This document shows positions 5,176-59,906 of a DNA stretch of 64,000 bases, piece after piece. The number at the start of each line of letters is the position of its first letter. The first letter of the stretch is position 1. A model generated the notes under the pieces. The model was not told where the DNA came from, did no database searches, and saw only the letters and a list, made by a program, of their open reading frames with translations. The DNA is from an uncultured bacterium. GTDB taxonomy: Bacteria; Bacillota; Clostridia; Oscillospirales; Acutalibacteraceae. The DNA is taken from the NCBI GenBank assembly GCA_905215855.1, contig CAJMRT010000003.1, forward strand, positions 12,597 through 76,596, in the 5' to 3' direction. Position numbers and translations under genes: made by a program.

Positions 5176-6099
5176 GTGATTGTAATGAAAAAATTCTTAT
5201 GTATAAATATTAGCGTTATTTTGTTGTTTTTGTTTGCCTTGAGTGGTTGTAGTGAAAACATAGAGATTGCTGAGGATAATATATATAACTTCATAAACTA
5301 TCAAAATGAAGAAGTATACGACATAGAGCAAATAGAGTTAAGTAATAGTTTGAGTAAAAGTTGTATCTCGTATAAATTTACATATATTTCTGATGGTTAT
5401 CAAGTAAAAGCTTATATATCTATTCCTCTGAGTCTTGTTGAAAATCAATCGCTAGGAAAGTGTATATTATATAACAGAGGAGGAAATAGCAAAATCGGTT
5501 TGCTTGGTGATGAAGATACCGCAAAACTTTGTGTATTGACAAATAGGATTATTGTTGCATCGCAATATAGAGGAGCAGATGGCGGAAGTGGTAAAGATGA
5601 GTTTGGTGGTAAAGATCTTAATGATGTTATAAAACTAATTGATTTGTGTGAAACACATTTTGACTTTATTAGCATGAAAGATTTTTGTGTTGCGGGTGTT
5701 TCTCGTGGTGGTATGATGACTTATATGACTGCCAAGCAGGATAATAGAGTTAAAGGAATTATAGCCATATCTGCTGTTAGTGATTTGTTTCAATCTTACG
5801 AAGCTCGTGAAGATATGCAAAAATTACTTTACAACTATATTGGGACAACTCCTGAGCAAAACCCAGAAGAATATGAAAAAAGATCAGCTATTTATTGGAC
5901 AGAAGAAATTACTGTACCTGTTTTGATTATTCATAGCAAATATGATGAACAAGTTTCTTTTTCACAAGCAGAAGATTTGTATAAAAAATTAAAACAAAAT
6001 AATAAACATATATATTTTAGTGTGCGTGATGATAATATACATGGCTTAAGTGATGGTGATCTCGAAGTAATACTAGATTGGCTTGATACAAATATTTAA
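5176..6099 (+). CDS. Lipoprotein, alpha/beta-hydrolase fold (S9 peptidase / dienelactone-hydrolase-like)
   Basis: Lipobox LSGC. Nucleophile elbow GVSRGG (GxSxG). ~300 aa with an acid/His region near the C-terminus (DDNIHG). Confidence 0.55.
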   Translation: MIVMKKFLCINISVILLFLFALSGCSENIEIAEDNIYNFINYQNEEVYDIEQIELSNSLSKSCISYKFTYISDGYQVKAYISIPLSLVENQSLGKCILYNRGGNSKIGLLGDEDTAKLCVLTNRIIVASQYRGADGGSGKDEFGGKDLNDVIKLIDLCETHFDFISMKDFCVAGVSRGGMMTYMTAKQDNRVKGIIAISAVSDLFQSYEAREDMQKLLYNYIGTTPEQNPEEYEKRSAIYWTEEITVPVLIIHSKYDEQVSFSQAEDLYKKLKQNNKHIYFSVRDDNIHGLSDGDLEVILDWLDTNI

Positions 6100-25633: not shown

Positions 25634-26875
25634 ATGAAAAAACTAATGAATCAAAACTGGTTTATCGCCATAGTATTTATGGTTCTGTATAAACCTGCAA
25701 TATTTTCACAAATGGCTCAATATCAGACATTTGATAAAATTTCAAATGTGCTGAAGGTACTCATCATTGCCGTCCTTCTGGTGTGGGTTTGCCTCTTTTA
25801 TCAAAAATTTTCAATGTACTTTGTAATATTTTTGTTTTTCGAAGTTTGGAGGATACTGGCAACGATTTATTGTGACGGAAACTATTCTTCCTTGTTTCTG
25901 ACAATATTCAATTCTCTTGCAATTGTATTAGTTGTTGAAATGGGACTAAAAACTGACCCTGATGCACTGCTTGACGGTGCGACCTTTGTTTTGGGAATAT
26001 TCGTGTTAATTAACTTTATCACTGTACTTTTGTTTCCGCAAGGAATGTATGAGTTTAACACATACACAACAAACTACTTCCTTGGTTATAGAAATAATTC
26101 GATTATGCTTATTTTTCCTGCAATGATTTTTTCGGTTGTTCGTTCCCTCAGATTATATGACAGATTGACTGTATCTTCTGTCCTGATTTGTGCCGCATCA
26201 ACTGCGACAGTAATACTTGCATTTTCCGCAACCAGCGTTATCGGAATTACAATATTTATTCTGTTCCTTTTTCTGGCTCTCCTCAACTGGATGCCGAAGT
26301 TTCTTAACATTGTCACATATATTGCAATAAATATTGCTTACTTTTTCGGAGTAATTATTCTGCGAGTTCAAGAAGCCTTTGCGTTTATTATTGTTGATAT
26401 GCTTGGAAGGGATTTAACCTTCACAGGCCGTACCAGCATATGGGACAGTGCGCTTGAAGCATTTTACAAATCTCCTATATTTGGTGTCGGTGAAATTGAT
26501 AATCAGGCATCAAGAGATTTAATAGGTGCTACACATGCTCATAACTATTACCTGAATCTTTTGTACAAAAGCGGAGTCCCCGGATTTTTGCTTTTCTTTA
26601 CCATCCTTATTATTTGTGGTATTGCCTTATACAAAAATCGCAAAAACGGCAAGATTCCGTTTGTTGTGTCAGGCGCTCTTTGCGCATTTATGGTTATGCT
26701 GCAAAGTGAGGCTTATTACAACATATATTATTTCTTTTCAATTCTCACATTATCAACATTCATATCATATGCTCTTCCCCAAAAAGATTCTGAGGGAAAT
26801 TTCATATATAAAAATAAAAAACAGATAAAATCCAAAAAAGTAACGATTAAATTTAAGGATGTGACTCATACTTGA
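25634..26875 (+). CDS. wzy: Wzy-type polysaccharide polymerase / O-antigen-ligase-family membrane protein
   Basis: ~10 TM segments with a large loop containing ...ATHAHNYYLNLLYKSGVPG, typical of the Wzy_C/O-antigen ligase domain. Confidence 0.6.
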   Translation: MKKLMNQNWFIAIVFMVLYKPAIFSQMAQYQTFDKISNVLKVLIIAVLLVWVCLFYQKFSMYFVIFLFFEVWRILATIYCDGNYSSLFLTIFNSLAIVLVVEMGLKTDPDALLDGATFVLGIFVLINFITVLLFPQGMYEFNTYTTNYFLGYRNNSIMLIFPAMIFSVVRSLRLYDRLTVSSVLICAASTATVILAFSATSVIGITIFILFLFLALLNWMPKFLNIVTYIAINIAYFFGVIILRVQEAFAFIIVDMLGRDLTFTGRTSIWDSALEAFYKSPIFGVGEIDNQASRDLIGATHAHNYYLNLLYKSGVPGFLLFFTILIICGIALYKNRKNGKIPFVVSGALCAFMVMLQSEAYYNIYYFFSILTLSTFISYALPQKDSEGNFIYKNKKQIKSKKVTIKFKDVTHT

Positions 26876-28272
26876 GCAATGCAAGTAAGGAAAACGGTAA
26901 AAATATAAAGGCGAGTGCTTTTTACTTGGTGGGCAACCTATTCAACAAAGCTCTTGCGTTTTTTACAATACCTATATTCACAAGAATTCTTACAACATCT
27001 GAATACGGAATTTCGCAAACCTATTTATCTTGGGTCAGCATATTAACTCTTATTGTCGGACTTTCGCTTGGCAACTCAATCCGTACAGCGTATGTTGATT
27101 TTCACGATGACATTGAAGGTTATATGTCATCAATTTACGGTCTATCATTACTCAGTTTTCTTGCTTCATCAGCTTTAATCATTACAGGGATGCTAATTTG
27201 GGGAGATATTGACATAATTCTCGTCATATGCTGTCTTGTGCAATCATATTTTCAGTTTGTTGCAACTGCTATGACAACAAAATATATGATGAAAGTTGAT
27301 TACATAAGAAAAACCCTTTTGCTGGCACTTCCAAATTTGACGATTCAGGTTATTGCAATATTCACCATTATGAATATGCACGGCGATAAAAAATACTTCG
27401 GATATATTATCCCATACGCCGCAATATATATGGTGGTCGGAATATATTTTGTAATTTCGTCATTTATCCGAGGAAAAAAGCCTGTAAACAAATTATATTG
27501 GAAATATGCACTCACATATTCCCTGCCACTTATATTCCACGGCCTTTCACTTGTTCTTCTGTCAAGTTCCGACAGAATTATGATTACAAACCTATATAAC
27601 TCATCTGAAACCGGAGTTTATAGTCTGATTTATAATTTAAGTATGGTTGCCATGGCAGTCACCGCATCTCTTGAGGCTGTGTGGGTCCCATGGTTCACCC
27701 GAAAACTTATGACAGGTGAGAAATCAACCATTAACAAAAACATCACAAAATACCTTGAAATTGCCCTTGTAGTCATGCTGTGCCTTATGTTTGTTGCTCC
27801 GGAAATAGTAAAAATTATGGCAACAGAACAATATTACAGTGGTATATATATGATTCCGCCGCTTGTATTTGCTTCCTACGAAATGTATATGTACACCGTA
27901 TATGTAAATGTAGAGTATTACTATAAATCAACAAAATACATTGCTTTTAACACCATTGTAGCTGCGGTTACAAACATTGTGCTTAATTTCATTTTTGTTC
28001 CTTTATACGGTGGAATGGCAGCCTGCTTTACTACAGTTGCTTCTTATATGGTTTCATTTATAATGCACTCAAGACACTCACGCAAGCTTGACAAAGAGCT
28101 GTTTCCCCTTAAACAATTTGCTGTTCCAACCTTAATTTTTATCCTTGCAATTATTCTTGCCTACCTTTTAATGGAACTTTGGATCGCACGCTGGATAATT
28201 GCAATTGTTGGATTTATCTGTTATGCAGCGTATGCACTCTTAACAAAGAGATTTTCAAACTTCCTAAAATAA
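26872..28272 (+). CDS. wzx: Wzx-type oligosaccharide flippase (MOP/PST family)
   Basis: ~12-14 TM. N-terminal KASAFYLVGNLFNKALAFFTIPIFTRIL pattern. The start appears to be TTG, overlapping the wzy stop. Confidence 0.7.
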   Translation: MSNASKENGKNIKASAFYLVGNLFNKALAFFTIPIFTRILTTSEYGISQTYLSWVSILTLIVGLSLGNSIRTAYVDFHDDIEGYMSSIYGLSLLSFLASSALIITGMLIWGDIDIILVICCLVQSYFQFVATAMTTKYMMKVDYIRKTLLLALPNLTIQVIAIFTIMNMHGDKKYFGYIIPYAAIYMVVGIYFVISSFIRGKKPVNKLYWKYALTYSLPLIFHGLSLVLLSSSDRIMITNLYNSSETGVYSLIYNLSMVAMAVTASLEAVWVPWFTRKLMTGEKSTINKNITKYLEIALVVMLCLMFVAPEIVKIMATEQYYSGIYMIPPLVFASYEMYMYTVYVNVEYYYKSTKYIAFNTIVAAVTNIVLNFIFVPLYGGMAACFTTVASYMVSFIMHSRHSRKLDKELFPLKQFAVPTLIFILAIILAYLLMELWIARWIIAIVGFICYAAYALLTKRFSNFLK

Positions 28273-28298
28273 CAATTATAATTTAATCTTTACACAAC

Positions 28299-28340
28299 AA
28301 AAGGTCCGATGCCATCGAAATGACATCGAACCTTTTTAAA
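28299..28340. terminator. Bidirectional terminator between wzx (+) and the 719-aa repeat protein (-)
   Basis: Imperfect 12-bp stem ggtccgatgcca / tgacatcgaacc flanked by an A-run and TTTTT. Confidence 0.5.
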
Positions 28341-28376
28341 TTTTACTTTTGTTTGAAATCAATTGCGATTTAGCAA

Positions 28377-30536
28377 TTATTTCTCACCGAGATTCCAATA
28401 GCCAAGGAACATACCGTAACCATCAGTACTAGAACCCGTTACCTTTGAGTCGCATACAACAAATGTTTCACCATTGTGGTCTGCTGTTGTAAATGTACCC
28501 TTATTGTATGTTGCGCTATAACTACCGCTCTTAGCATTTAATACATTGTATCTGGGTGAAAGGAGCGTTCTAAAATCACCGTTACTGTTGCAGAATACAA
28601 CATTCTTAGCATTATCAATTGCCTCAATCTGATCACTGTTAAGTGTTACCGAGTATACAGAATACTTACCACCTACGAGAGCATTAGTTTTTAACGATGG
28701 AGTATACTTATCGTCTGTCTTCTTCATTTCAATCTTAGTAAGATCAGCCGGTGAGTTACTTGAACCATACGCAAGATATACTCCCTTGTTCATTGCCTTC
28801 TTGCCCTTTACAGGTGCCGGGAATACGCAGTAGAGTGTTGCTGTGCTTTCTACGATTTTAACTTCTGATGTTGACCAATATCCTGTGAATGTGCCGTAAC
28901 CCTCAATACTTGAACCGGTGCTAATACCGTCACAGATTACAAATGTGTTCTTTGCTCTGTCGGCAAGCTTAGCTTTTGTTTTTGTGTATTCTGATGAATA
29001 CTCTTTTCCGGCAGGAGCCTTCATTACGCTGTACTTGCCGTTGATGTAAGTTCTGTATGTACCTGAAGCATTCTCAAAGATTACATATGCTGATGCATCA
29101 ATTGCTGCCACCTGATCCTCTGTAAGAGTCACAGTATATACCGGATATGTACCTGATACAAGCTGACTAGTCTTTGAATCTACATCTACATATGTGCTTG
29201 TTCTTGTCATCTTGATCTTATTGAATGAACCAATCTTGTAATCATTACTGTATCCAATATATACACCCTGATTCCAACAGTTCTTCCACTTTGTTGATGC
29301 CGGTGCCACTGCGTATACTGTAGTACACTTTGTCCAGTATCCTGTATATGTGCCGTAACCGTCTATGCTTTTTCCTGTTGTTACTTCACCATTCATAATG
29401 AATGTGTAATCATTAAGATTTGCAAGAGATGTTTTAGCTGTGTTGTAATCTGCACTGTATGTTCCTGTCGGAGCTTTAAGAAGATTGTACTTTGAGCTTA
29501 CATATGTCTTATATGTATTTGAGTTGTTTACAAGTACTACATAGATTGCCTTGCTTACTGCCTCTGCCTGCTCTTTTGAAAGTGTTACAGTGTAGAGAGC
29601 ATATGTACCTGCTGTAAGCTTGTCTGTCTTTAAATCAGGTGTAAGGAAATCTGTTGTCTTTGTAAGCTGAATCTTTGTGAATGTGTCGATGGCATACTTA
29701 TTGCTGTATGCAAGATAGATACCGTCATCCCAACATTTCGGGCTTGATGCTGTCTTTGGTACAACAAAGTTAAGTGTTGTTTCGCCTACCGGCTGAGTTG
29801 GCTCAGTTGCAGGAACTGTTGTCGGTTCTGTAGCAGGCTGTGTGGGTTCTGTTACAGGAGCAGTTGTCGGCTCTTCTGTAGGCTCTGCTGTTGTTGGAGC
29901 TGTTGTGGGTTCTTCTGTAGTAGGTTCTGTTGTAGGCTCTTCACCCTGAACGAGTTTTGCCTCAGCAGTAAATGTAGCACCCTCTACTCTTTCTTCATCA
30001 TAATTGATGTAAGAAATGTCGATGTTCTTACCCTCAAAAAGCTCTTCATACGAATCAGCCACTGTACCGGTAAGAATCTGAACATCGAGGTCAACTGTTG
30101 TATTGCCGCTGCCTATAACATCAAATGTGAATGTACAATAAACGCTCTTCTGCTTGAAGTTGTAAAGGTCAAGACTTGTACAGTTGAAAGGTAATCTGCC
30201 ATCAAGTTTCTTATTCCAAACGATTGTGTCGCCGAATACAGGGAAAACTGTGCTTCTTGTGTTTGTTGAAGTAAGCTTAAGTACAGAGCTGTCATATGTG
30301 AGTGTGCTCTGTGTGTTAAGAATCATATTCTTAGCCTGAAGATTGTATGTAACAACAACCTGTTTTGTATTTGCATTATACTCATACGAAACAGGATCTG
30401 TTACATTTGATGTAACATTGATTTTGTTTGTAGAATCTGTTTCGGCAGCGCTTGCAGAGAATGGGAGAGCTGTGAACATACACAGTACCATCATAACCGC
30501 AAGAACCACAGAAAGCTTTTTCTGGATTTTTTTCAT
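28377..30536 (-). CDS. Secreted 719-aa protein. N-terminal ~200-aa domain, Pro/Thr/Glu-rich linker, then three tandem ~150-aa repeats of unknown function.
   Basis: Signal peptide MKKIQKKLSVVLAVMMVLCMFTALPFSASA. Linker (EPTT)n. Three repeats, each starting ...KCWDDGIYLAYSNKY / KNCWNQGVYIGYSNDY / KKAMNKGVYLAYGSSN and ending ...GYGT(Y/F)TGYW. No C-terminal anchor. Confidence 0.6.
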   Translation of the reverse strand: MKKIQKKLSVVLAVMMVLCMFTALPFSASAAETDSTNKINVTSNVTDPVSYEYNANTKQVVVTYNLQAKNMILNTQSTLTYDSSVLKLTSTNTRSTVFPVFGDTIVWNKKLDGRLPFNCTSLDLYNFKQKSVYCTFTFDVIGSGNTTVDLDVQILTGTVADSYEELFEGKNIDISYINYDEERVEGATFTAEAKLVQGEEPTTEPTTEEPTTAPTTAEPTEEPTTAPVTEPTQPATEPTTVPATEPTQPVGETTLNFVVPKTASSPKCWDDGIYLAYSNKYAIDTFTKIQLTKTTDFLTPDLKTDKLTAGTYALYTVTLSKEQAEAVSKAIYVVLVNNSNTYKTYVSSKYNLLKAPTGTYSADYNTAKTSLANLNDYTFIMNGEVTTGKSIDGYGTYTGYWTKCTTVYAVAPASTKWKNCWNQGVYIGYSNDYKIGSFNKIKMTRTSTYVDVDSKTSQLVSGTYPVYTVTLTEDQVAAIDASAYVIFENASGTYRTYINGKYSVMKAPAGKEYSSEYTKTKAKLADRAKNTFVICDGISTGSSIEGYGTFTGYWSTSEVKIVESTATLYCVFPAPVKGKKAMNKGVYLAYGSSNSPADLTKIEMKKTDDKYTPSLKTNALVGGKYSVYSVTLNSDQIEAIDNAKNVVFCNSNGDFRTLLSPRYNVLNAKSGSYSATYNKGTFTTADHNGETFVVCDSKVTGSSTDGYGMFLGYWNLGEK

Positions 30537-31593: not shown

Positions 31594-34266
31594 CTACGGT
31601 TTCTGAAGTGCAGGGGCAAACACAGCGGCAGCACCCCAGAACAACGCATAAATCAAGACTTCAAGTGAACCCATAACACCCACACCCGCATACAGTGAAA
31701 GGGTTGACGCCACAAGCAAGCCGAGAATTACGGCAATCAGCTGAATTATAATTGAAAGCGAAATATTGTGCTTAATTTTTACGCAGCCTGTAACGGCACG
31801 GGCAAGCGATGCAGCCTTACCGTTAGTAATGAGGTAAGAACGAGAGGTTTCTTCAACAGTGTCCTCTGCCTCTTTAAGAACATTTCCGAGTCCTGTCGGC
31901 AACACCTTGATACTGCGATAGAACAAATCGTAAAGATTTGCAATAAGGTCATTTGTAACATTATAATCGGTTGTTCTGATAAGGAAACTGATGCCGTTGG
32001 TTTCGGCTCTCTGCATTTCAGCCTTAAGCTGAGGGTCGGCGGTATATTTTGTAACGAACATTGCAACGAGTCTGCCCGCTCTCGAAAGATATGTAACCTG
32101 TCTGCCCTGAGAAGTATATTTCTCCTCATATTCCATATTCGGAACTTCAACGCTGTATTTTTCCATAAGGGTGCGTGAGCCGACAAGGATTCTCTCGCTG
32201 TTAATCCAGCCGACAAGACCGATTTCGTCCTCGTACAGCACACTTTCAACCTCGGGAAGAGTTTCGTTTGTTTCGGCAACAACCGAATCAAACGCATTTG
32301 CAATCGGGTTCTGAGCCTCTTTGAGAATGGCTATACCGCACAAAAGTGACTCGTCAATTGCGTACTCCTCAAAGGTTTTGATTCCCTCAAGTGAGATTGA
32401 TTCGGCAGGGAACAGCTCGGTTGCATCTATCATAATGGCAGTGCTGTCGCAGAACTGTTTTACAGACGGATAACCCGAAAGCATTGAACCGTAGGAAAGC
32501 AAAGTTTTGCAGAGCTTTCTCACAGGAGCATTGACCGACAAAAGCGTTGCCACAGGAACGGACACCGCCGTTACAAGGGCAAATGCACTCAACGCACCGG
32601 CAAATGACATTTTAACAATGCCGTACATAATTGCGATTATCACTGACGCAACCGTTGTTATCGGGGCAAGTTTTGATGCCAAATCCTCACTCGGATCGGG
32701 AGCGTAGGATATTTTCAGGAAGTTTGCAGGGAATTTTGTCTTATGCTGATATGCAATAATCGGACGGTCGGCAGCAGTACCGCTCATCATCTGTCTTGCA
32801 ACAGACTCGTTATTATAAATTTTTGACGCATACTTCTGACCCTTTGATGATACAAAGCAGAAATTATCCTTTACACGAAGAACCATCAGAAGTTTGCCGA
32901 CATTGTTCGCAAAGAATGCAACCAGCGGAATTACCGTATAATAATTTACATAGAAGCCGTTCAAATCGCCAAGGCAGAAGAATGATACTATTATCTGAAC
33001 CATTCCTGCCGCACCGGCAACAGCGACAGCCGTGTCGGAGTTGCCCTTTATACGGACAAGCGGCGAAAGTCCGCTCAGCATTGCCACACGATTAAGCACA
33101 AGTGATGCTGTCATAAGAACAAACAGCAGAATTGCGTATGCAGCGGGTGCAAACGGTATTGAGGAACAGATTGCACTCGGAAAAATTCTTGTCACAATTG
33201 TAAGCACAACAACTATAGCTGCAATTATTCCCGAAAGCAGACTTCTCATAAACAGCTTTCTTATATTAAGATTAAGCTCATAGAATATGCTCTTTTCGTC
33301 CTCTTCACCTGTATAATCCTCAACAGGCTTTGCGTTTTCCTCTTTAACGGTATCGCTGTCATCGGATTCATCTTTTGAAAAAATCCCTACAAGAGCAGAA
33401 ATCACCTTTTCACCGAGAGGACGATTGTCCTTGTGCTTTTGCTCAGCGGGAGCAGCCTCTTCATCGACAGCAGTCGGTTCAGGTCGAAGCACATGAGCTA
33501 TTACCGAAGGATTTTTTGAACGGACATACTCTTCATACTCGTTAGCGACAACCTCAGAAAATCTGCCTGCCTTAACATTAAGAATATTTCTGGGTTCATC
33601 GGGACGATAAACAGGAACTTTTGCAACCACTTTGCGTGGCGGTTTTTCGGTATTTGGAAACTGATGAACAGGGGTTTTAGAAGATTCGGGAGTTTCCTCC
33701 TTTTCCTCTTCCTTTTCTTCAGGTTTATCATCGGGAATATCAATATCTATCGTATTGTAACTTTTGATTTCAGCGTCCTCACGGAACTGTTCAACCTCGC
33801 CGAGTACTTCACCCGAAAATTCTGTATTTTCGTCATATTCAGGGGTGAGAGTTACTATCTTATTCTCTTCCTCTGCGGCTTTTTTCTTTGCCTCTTCATA
33901 CTCACGCTTAGCTTTTTCGGCTCTTTCGGCTGCCTTTTTTTCAGCTTCTGCTTTGAGCTGTTCGGGAGTTACAAGTTCATCGTCATTTCCGTCCATTATC
34001 AGCTCTGCCTGCATTGTGGCAGCCGTTTTATCTCCGACTATTGAATTTGAGGTATTAGGTTCGGATTCATCGAGCGGATTTGCATTTTTTAATCTTGGCT
34101 TTTTATCTGCATTGCTGAAAATTTCCTCAACCTTTGGTTTCGCACGGTACTTTTCAGCAGTTTGCTCCATTCGCTCCTGATCGGCAAGATAGTGGGTTTC
34201 TTCGAGTATGCTCTCAATTTCAAGCTCTTTGAGCCTGTCCTTATCCATATCAGCCAAAGCATTCAC
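31594..34266 (-). CDS. Large membrane protein: ~330-aa acidic/Lys-rich low-complexity N-terminus plus a C-terminal P-type-ATPase-like (E1-E2 fold) region with degenerate catalytic motifs
   Basis: The TM region and downstream cytoplasmic domain follow the P-type ATPase order. The motifs are altered: DKTGT becomes IDATE (the catalytic Asp may be retained), TGES becomes SGTAAD, M(I/V)TGD becomes IRTTD, GDGxNDxP becomes ITNGKAAS. A RLVAMFVTKYTADPQLKAEMQRAETNGISFLI segment resembles the conserved P-domain stretch. N-terminus (AERAEKAKREYEEAKKKAAEEENK). Confidence 0.4.
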   Translation of the reverse strand: MNALADMDKDRLKELEIESILEETHYLADQERMEQTAEKYRAKPKVEEIFSNADKKPRLKNANPLDESEPNTSNSIVGDKTAATMQAELIMDGNDDELVTPEQLKAEAEKKAAERAEKAKREYEEAKKKAAEEENKIVTLTPEYDENTEFSGEVLGEVEQFREDAEIKSYNTIDIDIPDDKPEEKEEEKEETPESSKTPVHQFPNTEKPPRKVVAKVPVYRPDEPRNILNVKAGRFSEVVANEYEEYVRSKNPSVIAHVLRPEPTAVDEEAAPAEQKHKDNRPLGEKVISALVGIFSKDESDDSDTVKEENAKPVEDYTGEEDEKSIFYELNLNIRKLFMRSLLSGIIAAIVVVLTIVTRIFPSAICSSIPFAPAAYAILLFVLMTASLVLNRVAMLSGLSPLVRIKGNSDTAVAVAGAAGMVQIIVSFFCLGDLNGFYVNYYTVIPLVAFFANNVGKLLMVLRVKDNFCFVSSKGQKYASKIYNNESVARQMMSGTAADRPIIAYQHKTKFPANFLKISYAPDPSEDLASKLAPITTVASVIIAIMYGIVKMSFAGALSAFALVTAVSVPVATLLSVNAPVRKLCKTLLSYGSMLSGYPSVKQFCDSTAIMIDATELFPAESISLEGIKTFEEYAIDESLLCGIAILKEAQNPIANAFDSVVAETNETLPEVESVLYEDEIGLVGWINSERILVGSRTLMEKYSVEVPNMEYEEKYTSQGRQVTYLSRAGRLVAMFVTKYTADPQLKAEMQRAETNGISFLIRTTDYNVTNDLIANLYDLFYRSIKVLPTGLGNVLKEAEDTVEETSRSYLITNGKAASLARAVTGCVKIKHNISLSIIIQLIAVILGLLVASTLSLYAGVGVMGSLEVLIYALFWGAAAVFAPALQKP

Positions 34267-34440
34267 TCCTTTATTTTTTCGTTCGAGTAGATAGTTTAGG
34301 TTTATCGGAAACTATGCCGCCCGAACGGTACTCTCTGTTTTTTTACAGTCTTTGTATGGGCGGATATTATCCGCCCGTTTTGATAAAACATTTTGTTTAA
34401 TCGCATATTTTTTGATATGAAGAAAGTTGTGTATTCCAAT

Positions 34441-34590
34441 GTAGGGGCGGAACCGTGTTCGCCCGTTCGTGTGCTTTGCACACGATTGAACGCAATGCGT
34501 TCAAATTTAAAACAATATTAATAATTATATTAAATTATTTTGATGAAACAGATAATCTCTTTAATGCGGGCGAACGAGGTTCGCCCCTAC
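34441..34590. repeat. MITE-like element bounded by inverted GC-rich hairpin repeats (GTAGGGGCGGAACCGTGTTCGCCC ... GGGCGAACGAGGTTCGCCCCTAC)
   Basis: ~150 bp. The terminal inverted repeats share GTAGGGGCG. Internal palindromes (gtgtgcTTTgcacac, ttgaacgcaatgcgttcaa). A homologous 149-bp copy is at 58165..58313 and a solo end at 44551..44572. Confidence 0.6.
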
Positions 34591-44550: not shown

Positions 44551-44572
44551 GGCGAACACGGTTCGCCCCTAC
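44551..44572. repeat. Solo copy of the GTAGGGGCGAACCGTGTTCGCC hairpin repeat (inverted orientation)
   Basis: 22/22 identity, as reverse complement, to 58165..58186. Confidence 0.6.
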
Positions 44573-53247: not shown

Positions 53248-54129
53248 TTAGCTGTATGCTTCCACAATATATTTCTGAACAAGTGTGGCGTCAAGAATAT
53301 TGATAACGCCGTCATTATTTACATCGGACACATATATGCCGAAGTCATCAAGTGCGGCAGCTCCGAGTATATATTTTTGAATCTCGGTAACATCCATAAT
53401 ATTAACCCACCAGTCGCCGTTTGCGTTGCCCATGGTCAGCTTATCAATATAGGTACCTGTTGTACCACCGCCACCGCCCGACGCTGTATCGGTTTCATAT
53501 CCATAGCTTGTGGCATAGACCGTATCATGTCCTAGCTTGCGGCTGAGGTAAAATTCAACATATCCGTCCTTGTTCGGAGCACAGGCTGTCATAAAGCCGC
53601 CGCTCTCAATTATGAGATATGAATAATAGGTAACCTTGCCGGAACGCTGAGTTTTGTAGTTGAACTCCCATTTGCCGTTGTAGCTGTCCCTCTTGGTAGT
53701 GCCTTTTTCCGAAAAGGTCTTAGGGTCGAGGTCATGGAGCTTTACTCTGACTTTTACATATTTTCCCGAAAGGTCTGTTCTGAACAGATTTCTGTATGAC
53801 GAACTTCCGCCGCCACCGCCGTTAGTTAAATAAATGACATTGTATTTATCGGTTTTTGAAAAGTTATAAGCTTTTACCTTGTTCACAAGCGGCACAAAAT
53901 CTATCTTTGTAAGTCCGCCTTTTTCTTTTCTGAATTCCGCATAAACACTGTCGTTGGAATCAAGATTAAATGCAGTTGCCCCAAGCTGACCGTCCGCAAG
54001 TGTAAAGGATTTTCCGACATCTGTAACAGCCTTAACCTTTACAGCTGAATTTGCCGTAACAACAGATGTTAATGCCAGCACACCGCAAAGTGCCGTTGCG
54101 GTAATTTTTTTGATAATATTTTTCTTCAT
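53248..54129 (-). CDS. Secreted dockerin-containing protein of unknown function (paralog 1 of 3)
   Basis: Signal peptide MKKNIIKKITATALCGVLALTSVVTANSA (start at internal Met with RBS AGGGAGAG). A Gly-rich GGGGG segment. C-terminal type-I dockerin duplicated Ca-binding segments GNANGDWWVNIMDVTEIQKYIL and DVNNDGVINILDATLVQKYIV. Confidence 0.7.
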   Translation of the reverse strand: MKKNIIKKITATALCGVLALTSVVTANSAVKVKAVTDVGKSFTLADGQLGATAFNLDSNDSVYAEFRKEKGGLTKIDFVPLVNKVKAYNFSKTDKYNVIYLTNGGGGGSSSYRNLFRTDLSGKYVKVRVKLHDLDPKTFSEKGTTKRDSYNGKWEFNYKTQRSGKVTYYSYLIIESGGFMTACAPNKDGYVEFYLSRKLGHDTVYATSYGYETDTASGGGGGTTGTYIDKLTMGNANGDWWVNIMDVTEIQKYILGAAALDDFGIYVSDVNNDGVINILDATLVQKYIVEAYS

Positions 54130-54209
54130 TGTTCTCTCCCTATAAATCAAGATTTATGATTTGTCGCTTACAATATATTTTTGAATAAGAGTTGCGTCAA
54201 CAACATTGA
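54080..54209. repeat. ~130-bp direct repeat (copy 1) spanning a dockerin-gene junction. Identical to 55019..55148.
   Basis: Exact string caccgcaaagtgccgttgcggtaatttttttgataatatttttcttcattgttctctccctataaatcaagatttatgatttgtcgcttacaatatatttttgaataagagttgcgtcaacaacattga in both places. Confidence 0.85.
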
Positions 54210-55068
54210 TTTTACCGTCATGGTTTACATCGCTGTTAAAAAGCTGAGTCTTGCCGAATTTTACAATACCTACAACATATTTCTGAACAGATGTTGCATC
54301 TACAACCGTAATGTTTCCGTCTGGATATGCATCACCGCAAGTCAGGCAGTTCAATTTGCCACCAATCGTTGTTTTACACTCTGCGCCGTTTTTAAGTCTG
54401 CAATATTTATAAGCCATAAGGCCCGTATCCTCGCCAAGCTGTCTTGAAATATAAAACTCCGCATAGCCGTTCTTATCAGGGACAAAAGATGTTACCGCAC
54501 CTCCGCTGACAAAATATGCGCCCGAGGTTGCATAGCAAGGTTTGCCGCTGCTGTCTGTACCGAAATCCTCATATGTAAAGTCAAAATTCTTGTATGTGCC
54601 ATCGCTGAGTTTTCCGGTCATTGTGCCATCATCATTAAAGCCATCAGGAAAATAGTCGGAGAGTTTAATCCTTATCTTAACATATTCTCCGCCTGTTGAA
54701 TCATAATTGAATTTCATACCCGTATCACCAAAATAACGATTATCCGCTGTTATCATATGGCGAGTAAATTCCTGATTTTTCGGGAGATTTACAAACTTCG
54801 GTGCATCAATACAGTCCTTAAACATCACGCTGTACTTTTGATAATCCGTTGATATGAACATTGCCCCGAAATTCTTTGCCGTATTTTCGGTATATCCCGT
54901 TGTTGTAACAAAAAGCTGATTGTTTGAAATTTTCTGCGTTGTACCTGTAACTTCAAAGTCCTTGCGATCTTCATACTCGCTTACCGCACCTGTCGTAAGA
55001 ACCGAACCGACGGTAAGCACACCGCAAAGTGCCGTTGCGGTAATTTTTTTGATAATATTTTTCTTCAT
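54154..55068 (-). CDS. Secreted dockerin-containing protein of unknown function (paralog 2 of 3)
   Basis: Same signal peptide. Shared core (FVPDKNGYAEFYISRQLGEDTG). Dockerin repeats DGNITVVDATSVQKYVV and DVNHDGKINVVDATLIQKYIV. Confidence 0.7.
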   Translation of the reverse strand: MKKNIIKKITATALCGVLTVGSVLTTGAVSEYEDRKDFEVTGTTQKISNNQLFVTTTGYTENTAKNFGAMFISTDYQKYSVMFKDCIDAPKFVNLPKNQEFTRHMITADNRYFGDTGMKFNYDSTGGEYVKIRIKLSDYFPDGFNDDGTMTGKLSDGTYKNFDFTYEDFGTDSSGKPCYATSGAYFVSGGAVTSFVPDKNGYAEFYISRQLGEDTGLMAYKYCRLKNGAECKTTIGGKLNCLTCGDAYPDGNITVVDATSVQKYVVGIVKFGKTQLFNSDVNHDGKINVVDATLIQKYIVSDKS

Positions 55069-55148
55069 TGTTCTCTCCCTATAAATCAAGATTTATGATT
55101 TGTCGCTTACAATATATTTTTGAATAAGAGTTGCGTCAACAACATTGA
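55019..55148. repeat. ~130-bp direct repeat (copy 2) spanning a dockerin-gene junction
   Basis: Identical to 54080..54209. A diverged third copy lies at ~55976..56030. Confidence 0.85.
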
Positions 55149-56010
55149 CAGCACCGTCCGAATTCACATCACCGTTAAAAAGCTGAAGCTTACTCAATTT
55201 ATTTTCATTTACAACATACTTTTGAATTGCGGTTGCATCAGATACGGAAACCATCTCGTCGTCGTCTGTATTGCCGCAGATAAAGTTACTCAGCAAAGCA
55301 CTTGTTACGCCTTCATCACCCAACACACCGTTTTTCAGTACGCTTTCACAGGTTATCATTAACTCTACATCATCACCGATATTTCTTGAAACATAGATTT
55401 CCGCATAACCGTTTTTATCGGGTACAAACGAAGTAATCGCTCCGCCGCTGTGTGCATACGCACCCGATGATTCGTACAACAGCATACCTCTGTTGTCCTT
55501 TCCGTAATCATAGTAATTATAATCGTAAGTTCTTAACACACCGTTGTTCAGCGGTGCTGTAAAAGTACCGTCAGAATTGAAATACCCATTAAAATCAGAC
55601 AGTTTCACTTTCACCTTGACATATTTTCCGCCTGTTGTGTCAAATGTATGACAGGCAAAACTATTTCCGAAACCGTAGTTGTATTCATTTGCCATAAATC
55701 TTGAAAACTTCCTACCCTTAGGCAGCTGTATATATCTCGGATATTTCTCACAGCTTTTAAACTTCAATTTAAATTCGTTTTCCTGTTCGTCCTTGAATAA
55801 AACGCCGTACAGTCTTGAGGTTTTGCTCGTGTAACCTGTAGTTGTTACGAACAGCTGATTATTATTTATCTGCTGTGTTTCGCCTGTAACCTCAAACCTC
55901 TCCTGAGATTTTTCGACACTTTTCGGGGCAGCACTTACAGCAAATGCCGAGCCTGCCGCAAGCACACCGCAAAGTGCCGTTGCGGTGATTTTTTTGATTA
56001 CATTTTTCAT
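55093..56010 (-). CDS. Secreted dockerin-containing protein of unknown function (paralog 3 of 3)
   Basis: Signal peptide MKNVIKKITATALCGVLAAGSAFA (RBS GGAGGG). Shared core (FVPDKNGYAEIYVSRNIGDD). Dockerin repeats DDDEMVSVSDATAIQKYVV and DVNSDGAVNVVDATLIQKYIV. Confidence 0.7.
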   Translation of the reverse strand: MKNVIKKITATALCGVLAAGSAFAVSAAPKSVEKSQERFEVTGETQQINNNQLFVTTTGYTSKTSRLYGVLFKDEQENEFKLKFKSCEKYPRYIQLPKGRKFSRFMANEYNYGFGNSFACHTFDTTGGKYVKVKVKLSDFNGYFNSDGTFTAPLNNGVLRTYDYNYYDYGKDNRGMLLYESSGAYAHSGGAITSFVPDKNGYAEIYVSRNIGDDVELMITCESVLKNGVLGDEGVTSALLSNFICGNTDDDEMVSVSDATAIQKYVVNENKLSKLQLFNGDVNSDGAVNVVDATLIQKYIVSDKS

Positions 56011-56251
56011 TGTTTTACCCTCCGTATTTGCAGACATTACCGCAAATTTGTTCATACTTGTTTGAGTTTATCAATATATTATCCTTAAGTCAATAGCCGC
56101 AAATAAAATTTGGCATATACGGCAATATATGCGTATTTTTCCCAATGTTAATTATTACAAATGACAGACAAAATACTCGGAAATTTCTGTTTTTAACACA
56201 TTAGTTTTTAACAAAAAAAACAGACTGTACCGTAATACAGTCTGCTGTAAA

Positions 56252-58074: not shown

Positions 58075-58097
58075 GTAGGGGCGGTCATTGGCCGCCC
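58075..58097. repeat. GC-rich hairpin repeat GTAGGGGCGGTCATTGGCCGCCC (REP-like family member)
   Basis: Near-identical, as reverse complement, to 58291..58313 (gtaggggcgttcattggacgccc). Confidence 0.55.
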
Positions 58098-58164
58098 GCA
58101 AGTAAAGACATAAACATTGTGATAGAAATAAACTATATAAATATCACAAAATTACTGCTATTTT

Positions 58165-58313
58165 GTAGGGGCGAACCGTGTTCGCCCGTTCGTGTGCATT
58201 GCACACGATTGCACGCATTGCGTGCAAAATTGAATACACAATTTATGTTATATCAAAACCTATGTGTATGAACATAATATTTCATCAAGCGGGCGTCCAA
58301 TGAACGCCCCTAC
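58165..58313. repeat. MITE-like element, homolog of 34441..34590 (inverted GTAGGGGCG...CGCCCCTAC termini, 149 bp)
   Basis: The left 60 nt are ~90% identical to the 34441 copy, including the gtgtgcattgcacac and tgcacgcattgcgtgca palindromes. Sits in the pilin-sortase intergenic region. Confidence 0.6.
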
Positions 58314-58417
58314 AGATTATACACTGCTTTTATTGTATAAAAAGCTATGTGTATAAACATATAAATTCATCAAGCGGCGGATAATATCCGCATCTACGGC
58401 TCTTCTGTAAATAGAAC

Positions 58418-58439
58418 GGGGATGCGTTGCCGCATCCCC
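58418..58439 (-). promoter_or_regulatory. Stem-loop immediately 3' of the pilin gene and 5' of the sortase genes. Candidate intra-operon attenuator.
   Basis: ggggatgcg-ttgc-cgcatcccc perfect 9-bp GC-rich stem ~50 nt after the pilin stop, with no strong U-tract. Confidence 0.35.
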
Positions 58440-58487: not shown

Positions 58488-59906
58488 TTATTTAGCTGCT
58501 TTCTTTCTCTTAAGAACAAAGAGGAGAACGCCTGCACAAGCGATAAGTGCTGCACCGCCAATATAGAACATCATTGTACCCATACCACCTGTTGAAGGAA
58601 CTGTTACAGGATAATCAGGAACTTCTACCTGATTTACTTCGCTTGGATTACCGTCAACTGTAACTGTGATAACACCTGTTGTGCTAATATCAACTGTGTA
58701 CTCAGAAGAGTTGAGGTTGTAACCTGCAGGAGCTTTTGTCTCCTTAACCTTGTATGTACCTGCACCAAGCTTTTCAAATGTAACATGACCGCTTTCGTCT
58801 GTTATCTTAGTGCCAATCACTTTGCCCTCTTTATTCTTCAGCTCAAATGTTGCATTGCCAAGACCTTTCTTGTCAGCTGTTGTGCCATCATACTTGAATA
58901 CAGGAAGGTCGAATGTGTAAACATTTACTGTTCCACCAGACTTTGAAGCCTGACCGTATGTGTTTGTGTATGTAAGACTGTCGCTGTTGCTGTTGTCTGT
59001 TGCAGTGTTGCCCGAAACAGCTGTATCCTTAAGAATTGCTGTAAGTGTTACAGTAACATTTGAACTTGCATAGAAGTTATTACTGCCTTCTTCACCTTCA
59101 GCTTTTTCAGCATTAGCAAGATAAGCTGATGTAAGAGAAATCTTAATATCTGACTGTGATGAAGCATCTACTGTGTAATCTGAAGTTGAAAGTTTAGTGT
59201 TGCCAACCATAACTTCTGTTACAGCAGGAGTGTCAAAGCTATCTGAAAGGTTATCGTGGATTGTATACTCGGTAAGCGGAACTTCCTTAGAACCTGTAAC
59301 TGAAGCTGTGAGCTTAAATGTTACAGTGTCGCCTGCAGAAGCAGTTGTGTGCTTAGAATCGATGTCGCCACCAACGATTTCCTTAGAAACTTTAACTTGA
59401 CCTATGTTAATCTTGAGTTCGATTGGAGCTTCTGCTGAACCCTGAGTTGTCTTTGTGCCCTCAGGAAGAGCAAAGAGAGCACCGCCCTTTTCCCTTACGC
59501 TTGTTTCAGCAGGCTGGCCTGTAACCTTAACATAGTAAACACCTGCATCATTTGTACCGAAGTTGTAAACATCTTCGTCAGAAGTAAATTCATGGTTACC
59601 CTTGCTGTCTGCATCTGTAAATGTTGCACTTTCACAAGCAGCGAGAAGAGCCTCACCGTCATTACCCTTTGCACTATTCCAAGTTGTAAGAGCTGTTTTA
59701 ACAGCGTCGCCGCCCTTAATGTCAGTATATTCGCCTGTTGTTGTGTTAATTTTTGCTACCTTATAAACATTTACTTTAAAGCCGTTCTTGCCCTTGATAA
59801 ATGCGTTATAAGTATAGCTTTCTGCTGCACTTGCTGAGAATGGAATCATGAGAGCGATCATCATTACTGCAAGAACAGCTGCAAAGATTTTCTTTGTAGT
59901 TTTCAT
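58488..59906 (-). CDS. Backbone (major) pilin subunit of a sortase-assembled pilus
   Basis: Signal peptide. E-box YKVKETKAPAGY (consensus YxLxETxAPxGY). CnaB/Ig-like Thr/Ser-rich beta domains. C-terminal sorting signal VPSTG plus hydrophobic segment plus KRKKAAK. Strong RBS aaaggagaaag. Confidence 0.7.
   Translation of the reverse strand: MKTTKKIFAAVLAVMMIALMIPFSASAAESYTYNAFIKGKNGFKVNVYKVAKINTTTGEYTDIKGGDAVKTALTTWNSAKGNDGEALLAACESATFTDADSKGNHEFTSDEDVYNFGTNDAGVYYVKVTGQPAETSVREKGGALFALPEGTKTTQGSAEAPIELKINIGQVKVSKEIVGGDIDSKHTTASAGDTVTFKLTASVTGSKEVPLTEYTIHDNLSDSFDTPAVTEVMVGNTKLSTSDYTVDASSQSDIKISLTSAYLANAEKAEGEEGSNNFYASSNVTVTLTAILKDTAVSGNTATDNSNSDSLTYTNTYGQASKSGGTVNVYTFDLPVFKYDGTTADKKGLGNATFELKNKEGKVIGTKITDESGHVTFEKLGAGTYKVKETKAPAGYNLNSSEYTVDISTTGVITVTVDGNPSEVNQVEVPDYPVTVPSTGGMGTMMFYIGGAALIACAGVLLFVLKRKKAAK

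Follow-up and report, generated by a model that had tools for sequence, protein, structure and literature searches.

Within the 64,000 nucleotides of bacterial DNA analysed here (referred to as the window), GC-rich palindromic units recur between genes, which raises the question of what kind of element they are and which enzyme, if any, may have spread them. A sequence-only reading of the same DNA had already pointed to such recurrent units, and their recurrence was confirmed by counting. The 9-mer GTAGGGGCG has six exact matches in the window (34441+, 34582-, 44564-, 58075+, 58165+ and 58305-) compared with 0.12 ± 0.36 expected from 100 dinucleotide-preserving shuffles, none of which contained six, and every copy heads a GC-rich hairpin of 22–25 nt. 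A CRISPR array was ruled out, as the copies are irregularly spaced and lie in both orientations.

The hairpins were located by a script-based search of the window sequence. Their consensus is GTAG followed by GGGCGAAC, a 3-nt loop, GTTCGCCC and a G, so that GTAG stands directly at the foot of a GC-rich 8-bp stem made of GGGCG and three variable bases. Four of the units, called REPs in the following, form the ends of two composites. Composite A has GTAGGGGCG(G)AACCGTGTTCGCCCG with a 1-nt bulge at its left end (34441–34465, plus strand) and GTAGGGGCGAACCTCGTTCGCCCG, with an 8-bp stem and a 3-nt loop, at its right end (34567–34590, minus strand), and composite B starts with GTAGGGGCGAACCGTGTTCGCCCG (58165–58188, plus strand) and ends with a unit of the GGGCGTTC stem subtype, which reads GTAGGGGCGTTCATTGGACGCCCG on the minus strand and contains one T.G pair (58290–58313). 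Two further REPs are solo units, namely GTAGGGGCGAACCGTGTTCGCC on the minus strand (44551–44572) and GTAGGGGCGGTCATTGGCCGCCCG, with one T.G pair in its stem, on the plus strand (58075–58098). The solo REP at 44551 and the left end of composite B are identical at 25 of 25 positions, and variant stems occur at 58075 (GGGCGGTC/GGCCGCCC) and on the minus strand at 58290–58313 (GGGCGTTC/GGACGCCC).

The sequence-only reading had missed two degenerate units and a tandem duplicate. One of the degenerate units, GTATGGGCGGATATTATCCGCCCG, was found by the hairpin search at 34354–34377 (plus strand) and has the GGGCGGAT stem subtype, which recurs 12 times in other genomes among the matches listed; it begins with GTAT in the window, and other strains read CCGCCCCTAC with an intact GTAG. 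The other, GCGGCGGATAATATCCGCATCTAC (58374–58397), closes the tandem duplicate of the right half of composite B (58319–58397), in which 58319–58377 is 80% identical to 58234–58292. The imperfections among the units of the window are thus a bulge, T.G pairs and a GTAT where GTAG would stand. With three intergenic loci in 64 kb, the density of REPs in the window looks modest.

A formal rule for such units was taken from Quentin et al. 2018 (PMC6006769), namely GT[AG]G placed 5' of the stem at a distance of 0–2 nt, a stem that is fully paired over 7 bp or more, a loop of 2–5 nt and at least three G/C among the first four stem bases. The units at 58165, 44551 and 34568 conform strictly to this rule compared with 0.02 expected in shuffles, and those at 34441, 58075 and 58290 depart from it by no more than a single bulge or T.G pair. 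The bulge of the 34441 unit is missing in other strains. GTAG directly precedes the stem in five of the six units and lies 1 nt before it in the unit at 44551.

The two inverted pairs proposed from the sequence were found as described, composite A spanning 150 bp (34441–34590) and composite B 149 bp (58165–58313), with the GTAG ends facing outward in both. Their left 67 nt are 88% identical, and this shared part consists of the REP and two further hairpins, H2 and H3, which account for the interior that had been called internally palindromic; an AT-rich spacer and the right REP follow. H2 has the form CGTGTGC-NNN-GCACACG in both composites, with the loop TTT in A (34468–34484, plus strand) and ATT in B (58191–58207, plus strand). 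H3 has the form TTG(A/C)ACGC-NNN-GCGT(T/G)CAA, being TTGAACGC-AAT-GCGTTCAA in A (34486–34504, plus strand) and TTGCACGC-ATT-GCGTGCAA in B (58209–58227, plus strand); a compensatory change from A/T to C/G sets the two copies apart. The AT-rich spacer of composite A (34505–34566) is weakly conserved relative to that of composite B. Each composite, when single-stranded, folds as one long hairpin in which one REP is paired to the other and H2 and H3 are enclosed, with -46.9 kcal/mol (z = -9.75) for the plus strand of A as DNA, -40.4 kcal/mol (z = -7.1) for the plus strand of B as DNA, and -73.3 kcal/mol (z = -9.75) for the minus strand of A as RNA. Inverted REP pairs that fold into a single hairpin, which is what defines a REPIN, are therefore present at 34441–34590 and 58165–58313. 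Target-site duplications, the check that had been suggested for a mobile element, were found neither beside composite A (CCAAT|...|ATACA) nor beside composite B (ATTTT|...|AGATT), nor at the other loci compared.

All three REP loci of the window are intergenic, with co-directional genes of the minus strand on either side and REP units 10–55 nt downstream of stop codons. Composite A is located between the genes for a SpoU/RlmB methyltransferase and an 890-aa protein, the 44551 locus between MatE and DUF885, where the solo REP lies 10 nt past the MatE stop codon, and composite B between a SpaA-type pilin gene and a sortase gene. The solo REP at 58075 is positioned upstream of a promoter-like site of the sortase gene and is antisense to transcription. 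A role as termination elements in the sense of intrinsic terminators, which had also been considered, did not hold up: no T-tract follows any REP unit, none of the units was called by a terminator scan of the window, and the sole minus-strand call was a separate hairpin at 58439–58418. A search of the whole window against Rfam at gathering thresholds gave no match, and promoter-like sites are not enriched. The RlmB protein beside composite A is WP_294369612.1, annotated as 'MULTISPECIES ... [Ruminococcus]', and other products encoded in the window are three tandem dockerin proteins, a giant protein bearing CBM26, and sortases. Among the GTDB loci compared, the best DNA match reached only 79%, to a Ruminococcus MAG, and names of protein clusters were used instead to identify the organism. 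From the RlmB name, the human-gut contigs described below and the dockerin, CBM26 and sortase genes, the host is a human-gut Ruminococcus that is probably similar to Ruminococcus bromii.

Copies beyond the window were sought both within the species and in other genomes, and the family proved to be widespread, so that the finding which would have spoken against it, a motif confined to these few sites, did not occur. In metagenome contigs, an exact scan for the core formed by REP, H2 and H3 recovered at least 120 stretches, all of them from human gut among the matches listed. The 400-nt distal flanks were clustered for 91 evaluable matches to this core and yielded, among the matches listed, eight left-flank clusters and 12 combinations of left and right flanks, which places the left half of the composite in at least eight distinct neighbourhoods of the same species. 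One contig of 2.21 Mb alone contains three matches. As regards the whole doublet as the replicated unit, it is these left 67 nt that recur, and the right halves are variable and recombine among the metagenome copies, their REP being of the GGGCGTCC, GGGCGGAT or GGGCGAAC type or missing. Some left REPs are cut off in or beside the loop, with differing upstream flanks. Metagenome contigs that carry the pilin gene terminate inside composite B, at the right-end REP (58290–58313), which is explained by a multi-copy repeat breaking short-read assemblies.

A strain alignment of locus A was built from ten contigs encoding an identical RlmB. The outer REP is present in all ten and the full composite in nine. 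In four of the ten strains, the outer (right-end) REP is swapped for a block that is about 116 nt longer and contains hairpins of its own as well as a degenerate GGGAGTTC...GGACGCCC REP. In one contig (L129), the sequence departs from the others immediately past the outer REP and continues as another head-to-head doublet, beyond which lie phage-like genes for amidase and holin. In addition, the H2 loop of composite A flips between AAA and TTT among strains, and the 1-nt bulge of its inner REP is polymorphic (indel at 34450). On the basis of these differences, the REPs are sites of rearrangement between strains. A general hypervariability of REPs among strains was also considered and was rejected, as the enrichment was mild and unconvincing in an alignment not chosen by REP sequence. 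The solo REP at 44551 was identical and fixed in all eight strain contigs examined, and the locus B contigs end within the repeat; no clean empty site was obtained.

In species-representative genomes, the 20-nt REP core GTAGGGGCGAACNNNGTTCGCCC was found in more than 120 stretches, mostly of gut Clostridia, which among the matches listed include Oscillospiraceae, Ruminococcus, Acutalibacteraceae and Christensenella. Coriobacteriia, Zoogloeaceae, Helicobacteraceae, Cyanobacteria, Omnitrophota, Gemmatimonadales and Nitrospinota were listed as further hosts. As 13 of the 20 core bases (GTAGGGGCG and CGCC) represent the foot typical of the subclass, only three stem positions are free, and sharing of the core across phyla is thus weaker evidence of common descent than it appears. 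By the rule of PMC6006769, the listed loci contain 366 GTAG REPs compared with eight in the shuffled control. GGGCGACC, GGGCGTTC and GGGCGGAT are among the companion stems there, and each of the three is present in the window too. When neighbouring units no more than 150 nt apart were counted in these loci, head-to-head pairs were the commonest arrangement (73), followed by head-to-tail (47), tail-to-tail (26) and overlapping or 'double foot' pairs (13). The head-to-head spacers in other genomes have modes at 2 nt and at 24–34 nt; the spacers of about 101 nt in the window composites are longer than usual and belong to the long end of the range.

A link to a candidate enzyme was provided by three of the 120 listed loci (L010, L112 and L114), in which the REP motif lies in frame within open reading frames that resemble those of REP-associated tyrosine transposases (RAYT or TnpAREP). 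The REP core of the window is identical to the in-frame REPs of these RAYT-like genes from other gut Clostridia. The first in-frame copy reads GTA GGG GCG AAC TGT GTT CGC CCG and is translated as VGANCVRP; the second is inverted, an example being GGG CGA CCA CAG GTC GCC CCT AC with the translation GRPQVAPT. The RAYT-like proteins were matched to the NCBIfam model REP_Tyr_transpos with E = 4e-19 and 2e-18, at scores of 66–69 bits that lie under the curated cutoff of 80. One of the two proteins matches Pfam Y1_Tnp and the other scores nothing in Pfam, and their sole match in the PDB is E. coli TnpAREP (4ER8, 5.8e-7). They have 175–183 aa and carry the motifs MPNH(L/I)H, IWQKS and YI(F/R/E/Y)xNP. 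Their genes are single and have housekeeping surroundings, one example being a position after rplL.

A search for homologues gave 2795 proteins, and VGANCVRP was present in 102 of the 120 best. In the variants VGATCGRP and VGASCARP, codons 4 and 6 are altered as reverse complements of each other (AAC/GTT, ACC/GGT and AGC/GCT), which shows that the hairpin is conserved and not the peptide. The third codon positions of the in-gene REPs are frozen and changes in the stem are compensatory. Among the genomic REPs, TGT and TGC are the most frequent loops (94 of 174) and coincide with the Cys codon of the in-gene copy. At the DNA level, the order in all seven RAYT-like genes analysed is REP1 (about residue 55), HUH motif (about residue 98) and inverted REP2 (about residue 112), so that the pair inside the gene is itself a head-to-head doublet around the segment that codes for HUH.

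REPs inside such a gene are not a discovery, and this claim was rejected, since they are a published hallmark of TnpAY1 subclass 2.4. This subclass, which corresponds to Group 4 of Bertels, was described by Quentin et al. (PMC6006769) by the motifs NH[IFV]H, WQ and YIxNNP and a length of about 194 aa; the REPs belonging to it are of the canonical long kind, with three G-C foot pairs, and of the double-foot kind, and REP insertions in tnpAREP that preserve the reading frame were called its 'remarkable and unique feature'. The proteins of the related Clostridia loci agree with this description in NH(L/I)H, WQ, YIxxNP, a length of about 175–183 aa and the in-frame REPs, and they qualify for subclass 2.4, with the L in HuH lying outside the printed [IFV]. 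They differ in the position of the insertions, which were reported as 'generally between HuH and Y' and are located here before HUH (about residue 55) and between HUH and Y (about residue 112). What differs from PMC6006769 is the host group and the placement of one in-gene REP before HUH and the other after it. Palindromic repeats that are tolerated in frame inside protein-coding genes are also known from the Rickettsia palindromic elements. Those are unrelated in sequence, and the in-frame copies described here differ from them in lying within the gene of the putative mobilising enzyme.

Several known systems resemble the family. GTAG-tagged REP families were described by Di Nocera et al. 2013 (PMC3733652) as head-to-head, tail-to-tail and head-to-tail dimers 20–100 bp apart, situated downstream of ORFs and between unidirectional genes, with REPs inside genes also reported. 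The REPs of the window share with these families and with the long REPs of subclass 2.4 the unpaired GTAG at the foot of a GC-rich hairpin, the three basal G-C pairs and a loop of 2–3 nt. They also share with the GTAG families the stem subfamilies with complementary changes, the extragenic occurrence as singles, as dimers of all three orientations and as clusters, and the position downstream of ORFs between co-directional genes. The host is different, being a gut Ruminococcus of the Clostridia: 'Firmicutes' and 'Clostridi' do not appear in the text of PMC3733652, the hosts in PMC3733652 and PMC6006769 are Proteobacteria, Cyanobacteria, Bacteroidetes and others, and the family of the window is not described there. 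With REPINs (Bertels & Rainey 2011, PMC3116915) and the BIMEs of E. coli, the composites have in common that two inverted REPs form one long hairpin. As in BIMEs, different REP subtypes are paired (Y and Z in E. coli), and the conserved module between the REPs recalls the internal motifs; differences lie in the spacer of about 101 nt with the extra hairpins H2 and H3 and in the variable right half. A REPtron, in which doublets of this kind flank a single-copy RAYT, was not observed for this species in the sequence searched. The ends of IS200/IS605 elements and PATEs are similar in their subterminal hairpins, the 5' guide tetranucleotide and the lack of target-site duplications, and by analogy a Y1 HUH enzyme acting on single-stranded DNA might be common to both. 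In contrast to IS200/IS605, there is no tnpA/tnpB cargo, the foot is the GTAG typical of REPs and the associated protein has Y...NP instead of Y...Q.

Taken together, there is good reason to regard the units as GTAG-tagged REPs, the composites as head-to-head doublets of the REPIN/BIME type and both as likely substrates of RAYTs of subclass 2.4. Of the earlier designation as a REP/MITE-type family, the REP part is thus retained (GTAG hairpins, extragenic, in multi-copy doublets), whereas the MITE part is not, given the lack of target-site duplications and the presence of solo units. By analogy to the enzymes of IS200/IS605 and TnpAREP, a RAYT with HUH/Y1 chemistry would bind the hairpin on single-stranded DNA, with GTAG serving as the guide, and would cut and join without creating target duplications; a Y1 HUH mechanism of this kind would account for the composites having no flanking direct repeats. 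The enzyme would be a TnpAY1 of subclass 2.4, whose genes contain the same REPs in frame. A RAYT-like protein of this subclass would be expected to bind and cut single-stranded GTAGGGGCGAAC...GTTCGCCCG, and binding and cleavage of the top and bottom strands of GTAGGGGCGAACTGTGTTCGCCCG would be expected to be strand-specific.

We infer by the same analogy that a RAYT in this genome might have made these copies or might still move them. That no transposase is nearby, as had been noted from the sequence, was corroborated by tblastn, in which two RAYT-like proteins found no match in the window. Nor did about 1.3 Mb of redundant sequence from the same species around the composites yield one, and when the search took in the window, 141 loci of the same species and 49 viral loci, no match was obtained outside L010, L112 and L114. 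Contigs fetched for two abundant clusters of homologues (P0005 and P0002) were short and could not be assigned to the species. The copies could thus be relics in a host without a RAYT, persisting by recombination, gene conversion and hairpin-driven template switching, a special case of the main explanation, from which it departs on present-day mobility. The many imperfect units, strain differences that resemble block swaps and loop flips and not clean insertions, and the fixation of the solo REP at 44551 are in line with such relics, but the RAYT search covered a small and biased part of the genome, and both the identity of two units at different loci over 25 of 25 positions and the spread of the composite over at least eight neighbourhoods fit fairly recent copying. 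On balance, relics are possible but somewhat unlikely. A classical MITE, derived by deletion from an insertion sequence with a DDE transposase and moved in trans, with the 24-bp ends as terminal inverted repeats, would likewise be about 150 bp long, non-coding and multi-copy with inverted termini. Such an origin is nevertheless highly improbable, because the target-site-duplication test failed at composites A and B and the other loci, solo, tail-to-tail and head-to-tail units are common, each end folds on itself as a GTAG hairpin identical to the REPs within Y1-transposase genes, and an insertion sequence with such ends was not seen.

Two further explanations place the function in RNA. Units situated 10–55 nt past the stop codons of co-directional genes and folding very stably as RNA might primarily be regulatory elements of the host, either intrinsic terminators or stabilisers of mRNA 3' ends. 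REPs of E. coli do stabilise upstream mRNA. Literature on this effect is also cited within PMC6006769. The missing T-tracts and the negative terminator scan argue against the terminator variant, and the doublets are symmetric, solo units occur in both orientations to transcription (with the one at 58075 being antisense), and the conserved unpaired GTAG would have no role in a terminator. Together with the negative Rfam search, this makes regulation improbable as an origin; it could be a secondary effect and not an alternative origin. A secondary role of the transcribed copies 3' of genes as mRNA 3'-end stabilisers is plausible from their position. The composite of about 150 bp might also be a small structured RNA gene or a cis-regulatory RNA, for which its strong fold, the compensatory change in H3 and the conserved left half could be quoted. 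Yet neither an Rfam family at gathering thresholds nor enriched promoter-like sites point to an RNA, the copies are dispersed over at least eight unrelated neighbourhoods with variable right halves, and palindromes fold equally on both strands, so that this explanation is extremely improbable. The reading as REPs and REPIN/BIME-type doublets that are substrates of RAYTs of subclass 2.4 is therefore preferred.

Within this preferred reading, the doublet inside the RAYT-like genes might itself be functional, either as a portable 'seed' for a new REP population or as a self-targeting switch, both of which are speculative and rather doubtful. If it were a seed, a horizontally transferred enzyme would found a new REP population and the REPs of the window would descend from such a seed, which would help to explain the occurrence of the core in Clostridia, Coriobacteriia, Proteobacteria, Cyanobacteria, Omnitrophota and Gemmatimonadota. 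If it were a switch, the enzyme could cut or excise its own catalytic segment. Independent of both, the in-frame REP pair is a natural case of a nucleic-acid hairpin that constrains a protein sequence, a phenomenon that has already been published.

The family of the window is an ordinary addition to a known class of REPs, given that REPs within the transposase gene have been published before. Its meaning lies in the host, as the picture of REPs, REPINs and RAYTs, obtained mainly from Proteobacteria and Cyanobacteria, is extended to abundant Clostridia of the human gut, here an organism probably similar to Ruminococcus bromii. The REPs of this family are break points of metagenome assemblies and the exact sites at which strains differ, and they mark junctions of rearrangement, one of which lies beside phage-like lysis genes.

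At the intergenic site between the SpoU/RlmB gene and the gene for an 890-aa protein, one strain of the same species (stretch L129, 3757-6762) departs from the window directly past the outer repetitive extragenic palindrome (REP) and continues into another head-to-head REP doublet with the stem GGGAGAAC. Past this doublet, genes for an Amidase_2 protein and a phage holin are found where the 890-aa gene would stand. As the divergence begins at the outer REP and the genes beyond it are phage-like, a rearrangement or prophage junction is located at the REP. The 890-aa ORF of the window (31594-34266, minus strand) and a 719-aa ORF (28377-30536, minus strand) with internal repeats of families D4 and D5 gave no Pfam match at E <= 0.001.

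Assembly breaks were also found at such elements. Contigs carrying the pilin gene of the window (58488-59906) end 173-196 nt past the pilin stop codon, i.e., within the composite repeat at 58165-58313; these contigs (L139-L141) are the matches listed, and nine further similar places exist beyond them. This composite repeat interrupts short-read assemblies.

Single-base differences were seen at orthologous loci of same-species human-gut contigs (L142-L261), in which the 9 nt GTAGGGGCG in the 5' arm of the left REP occur with many variants, such as GTAGCGGCG, GCAGGGGCG, GTCGGGGCG, GTGGGGGCG, GTAGGGGTG, and others, and the 30-nt flank beside this arm is nearly invariant. These contigs were retrieved by a pattern that fixed the 3' arm of the REP, and coverage was low in many of them; therefore, the variability of the 5' arm may be due to ascertainment bias or to hairpin-related sequencing errors. 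In an alignment chosen independently of the REP, enrichment of variants at the REP was only mild.

Among contigs classed as viral in IMG/VR, which could be prophage regions of Clostridia or miscalled host DNA, 49 stretches also contain the REP core, in some cases in four copies, and a search of these stretches by tblastn with proteins resembling REP-associated tyrosine transposases (RAYTs) found no RAYT-like gene. Tandem arrays built from REPs occur in other genomes: an Oscillospiraceae MAG (L118, 2799-3145) has six units of a roughly 65-nt repeat, and a Coriobacteriales MAG (L044, 1966-2930) has a 120-nt repeat of head-to-head REP doublets. At a further locus (L013), some 211 nt from the minus-strand start, an 18-nt microsatellite immediately follows a REP. 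Two closely spaced head-to-head REPs in L034 lie immediately upstream of a hairpin and a TATAAT-like region, and in L112 the same hairpin and TATAAT-like region (5585-5640) precede a RAYT-like gene. This hints at a REPtron-like layout, in which REPs might flank the RAYT-like gene besides lying within it.

In the window, the long ORFs change strand near 26000-28400: those up to about 28.3 kb are plus-strand ORFs, and those beyond are minus-strand ORFs. Cumulative GC skew, computed over the whole of 1-64000, has its maximum at about 24-26 kb. This pattern is that expected at converging replication forks and could mark the terminus region, or it could reflect no more than genes that converge locally.

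Three paralogous genes in tandem, encoding 300-320 aa each (53248-56055, minus strand), form the repeat families D1-D3 with a period of 939-945 bp, and each ends with a type I dockerin domain. They adjoin the genes of a SpaA pilin, of two sortases, and of a 1304-aa protein, homologues of which carry CBM26. This neighbourhood resembles an R. bromii-type cluster of amylosome or pilus surface proteins.
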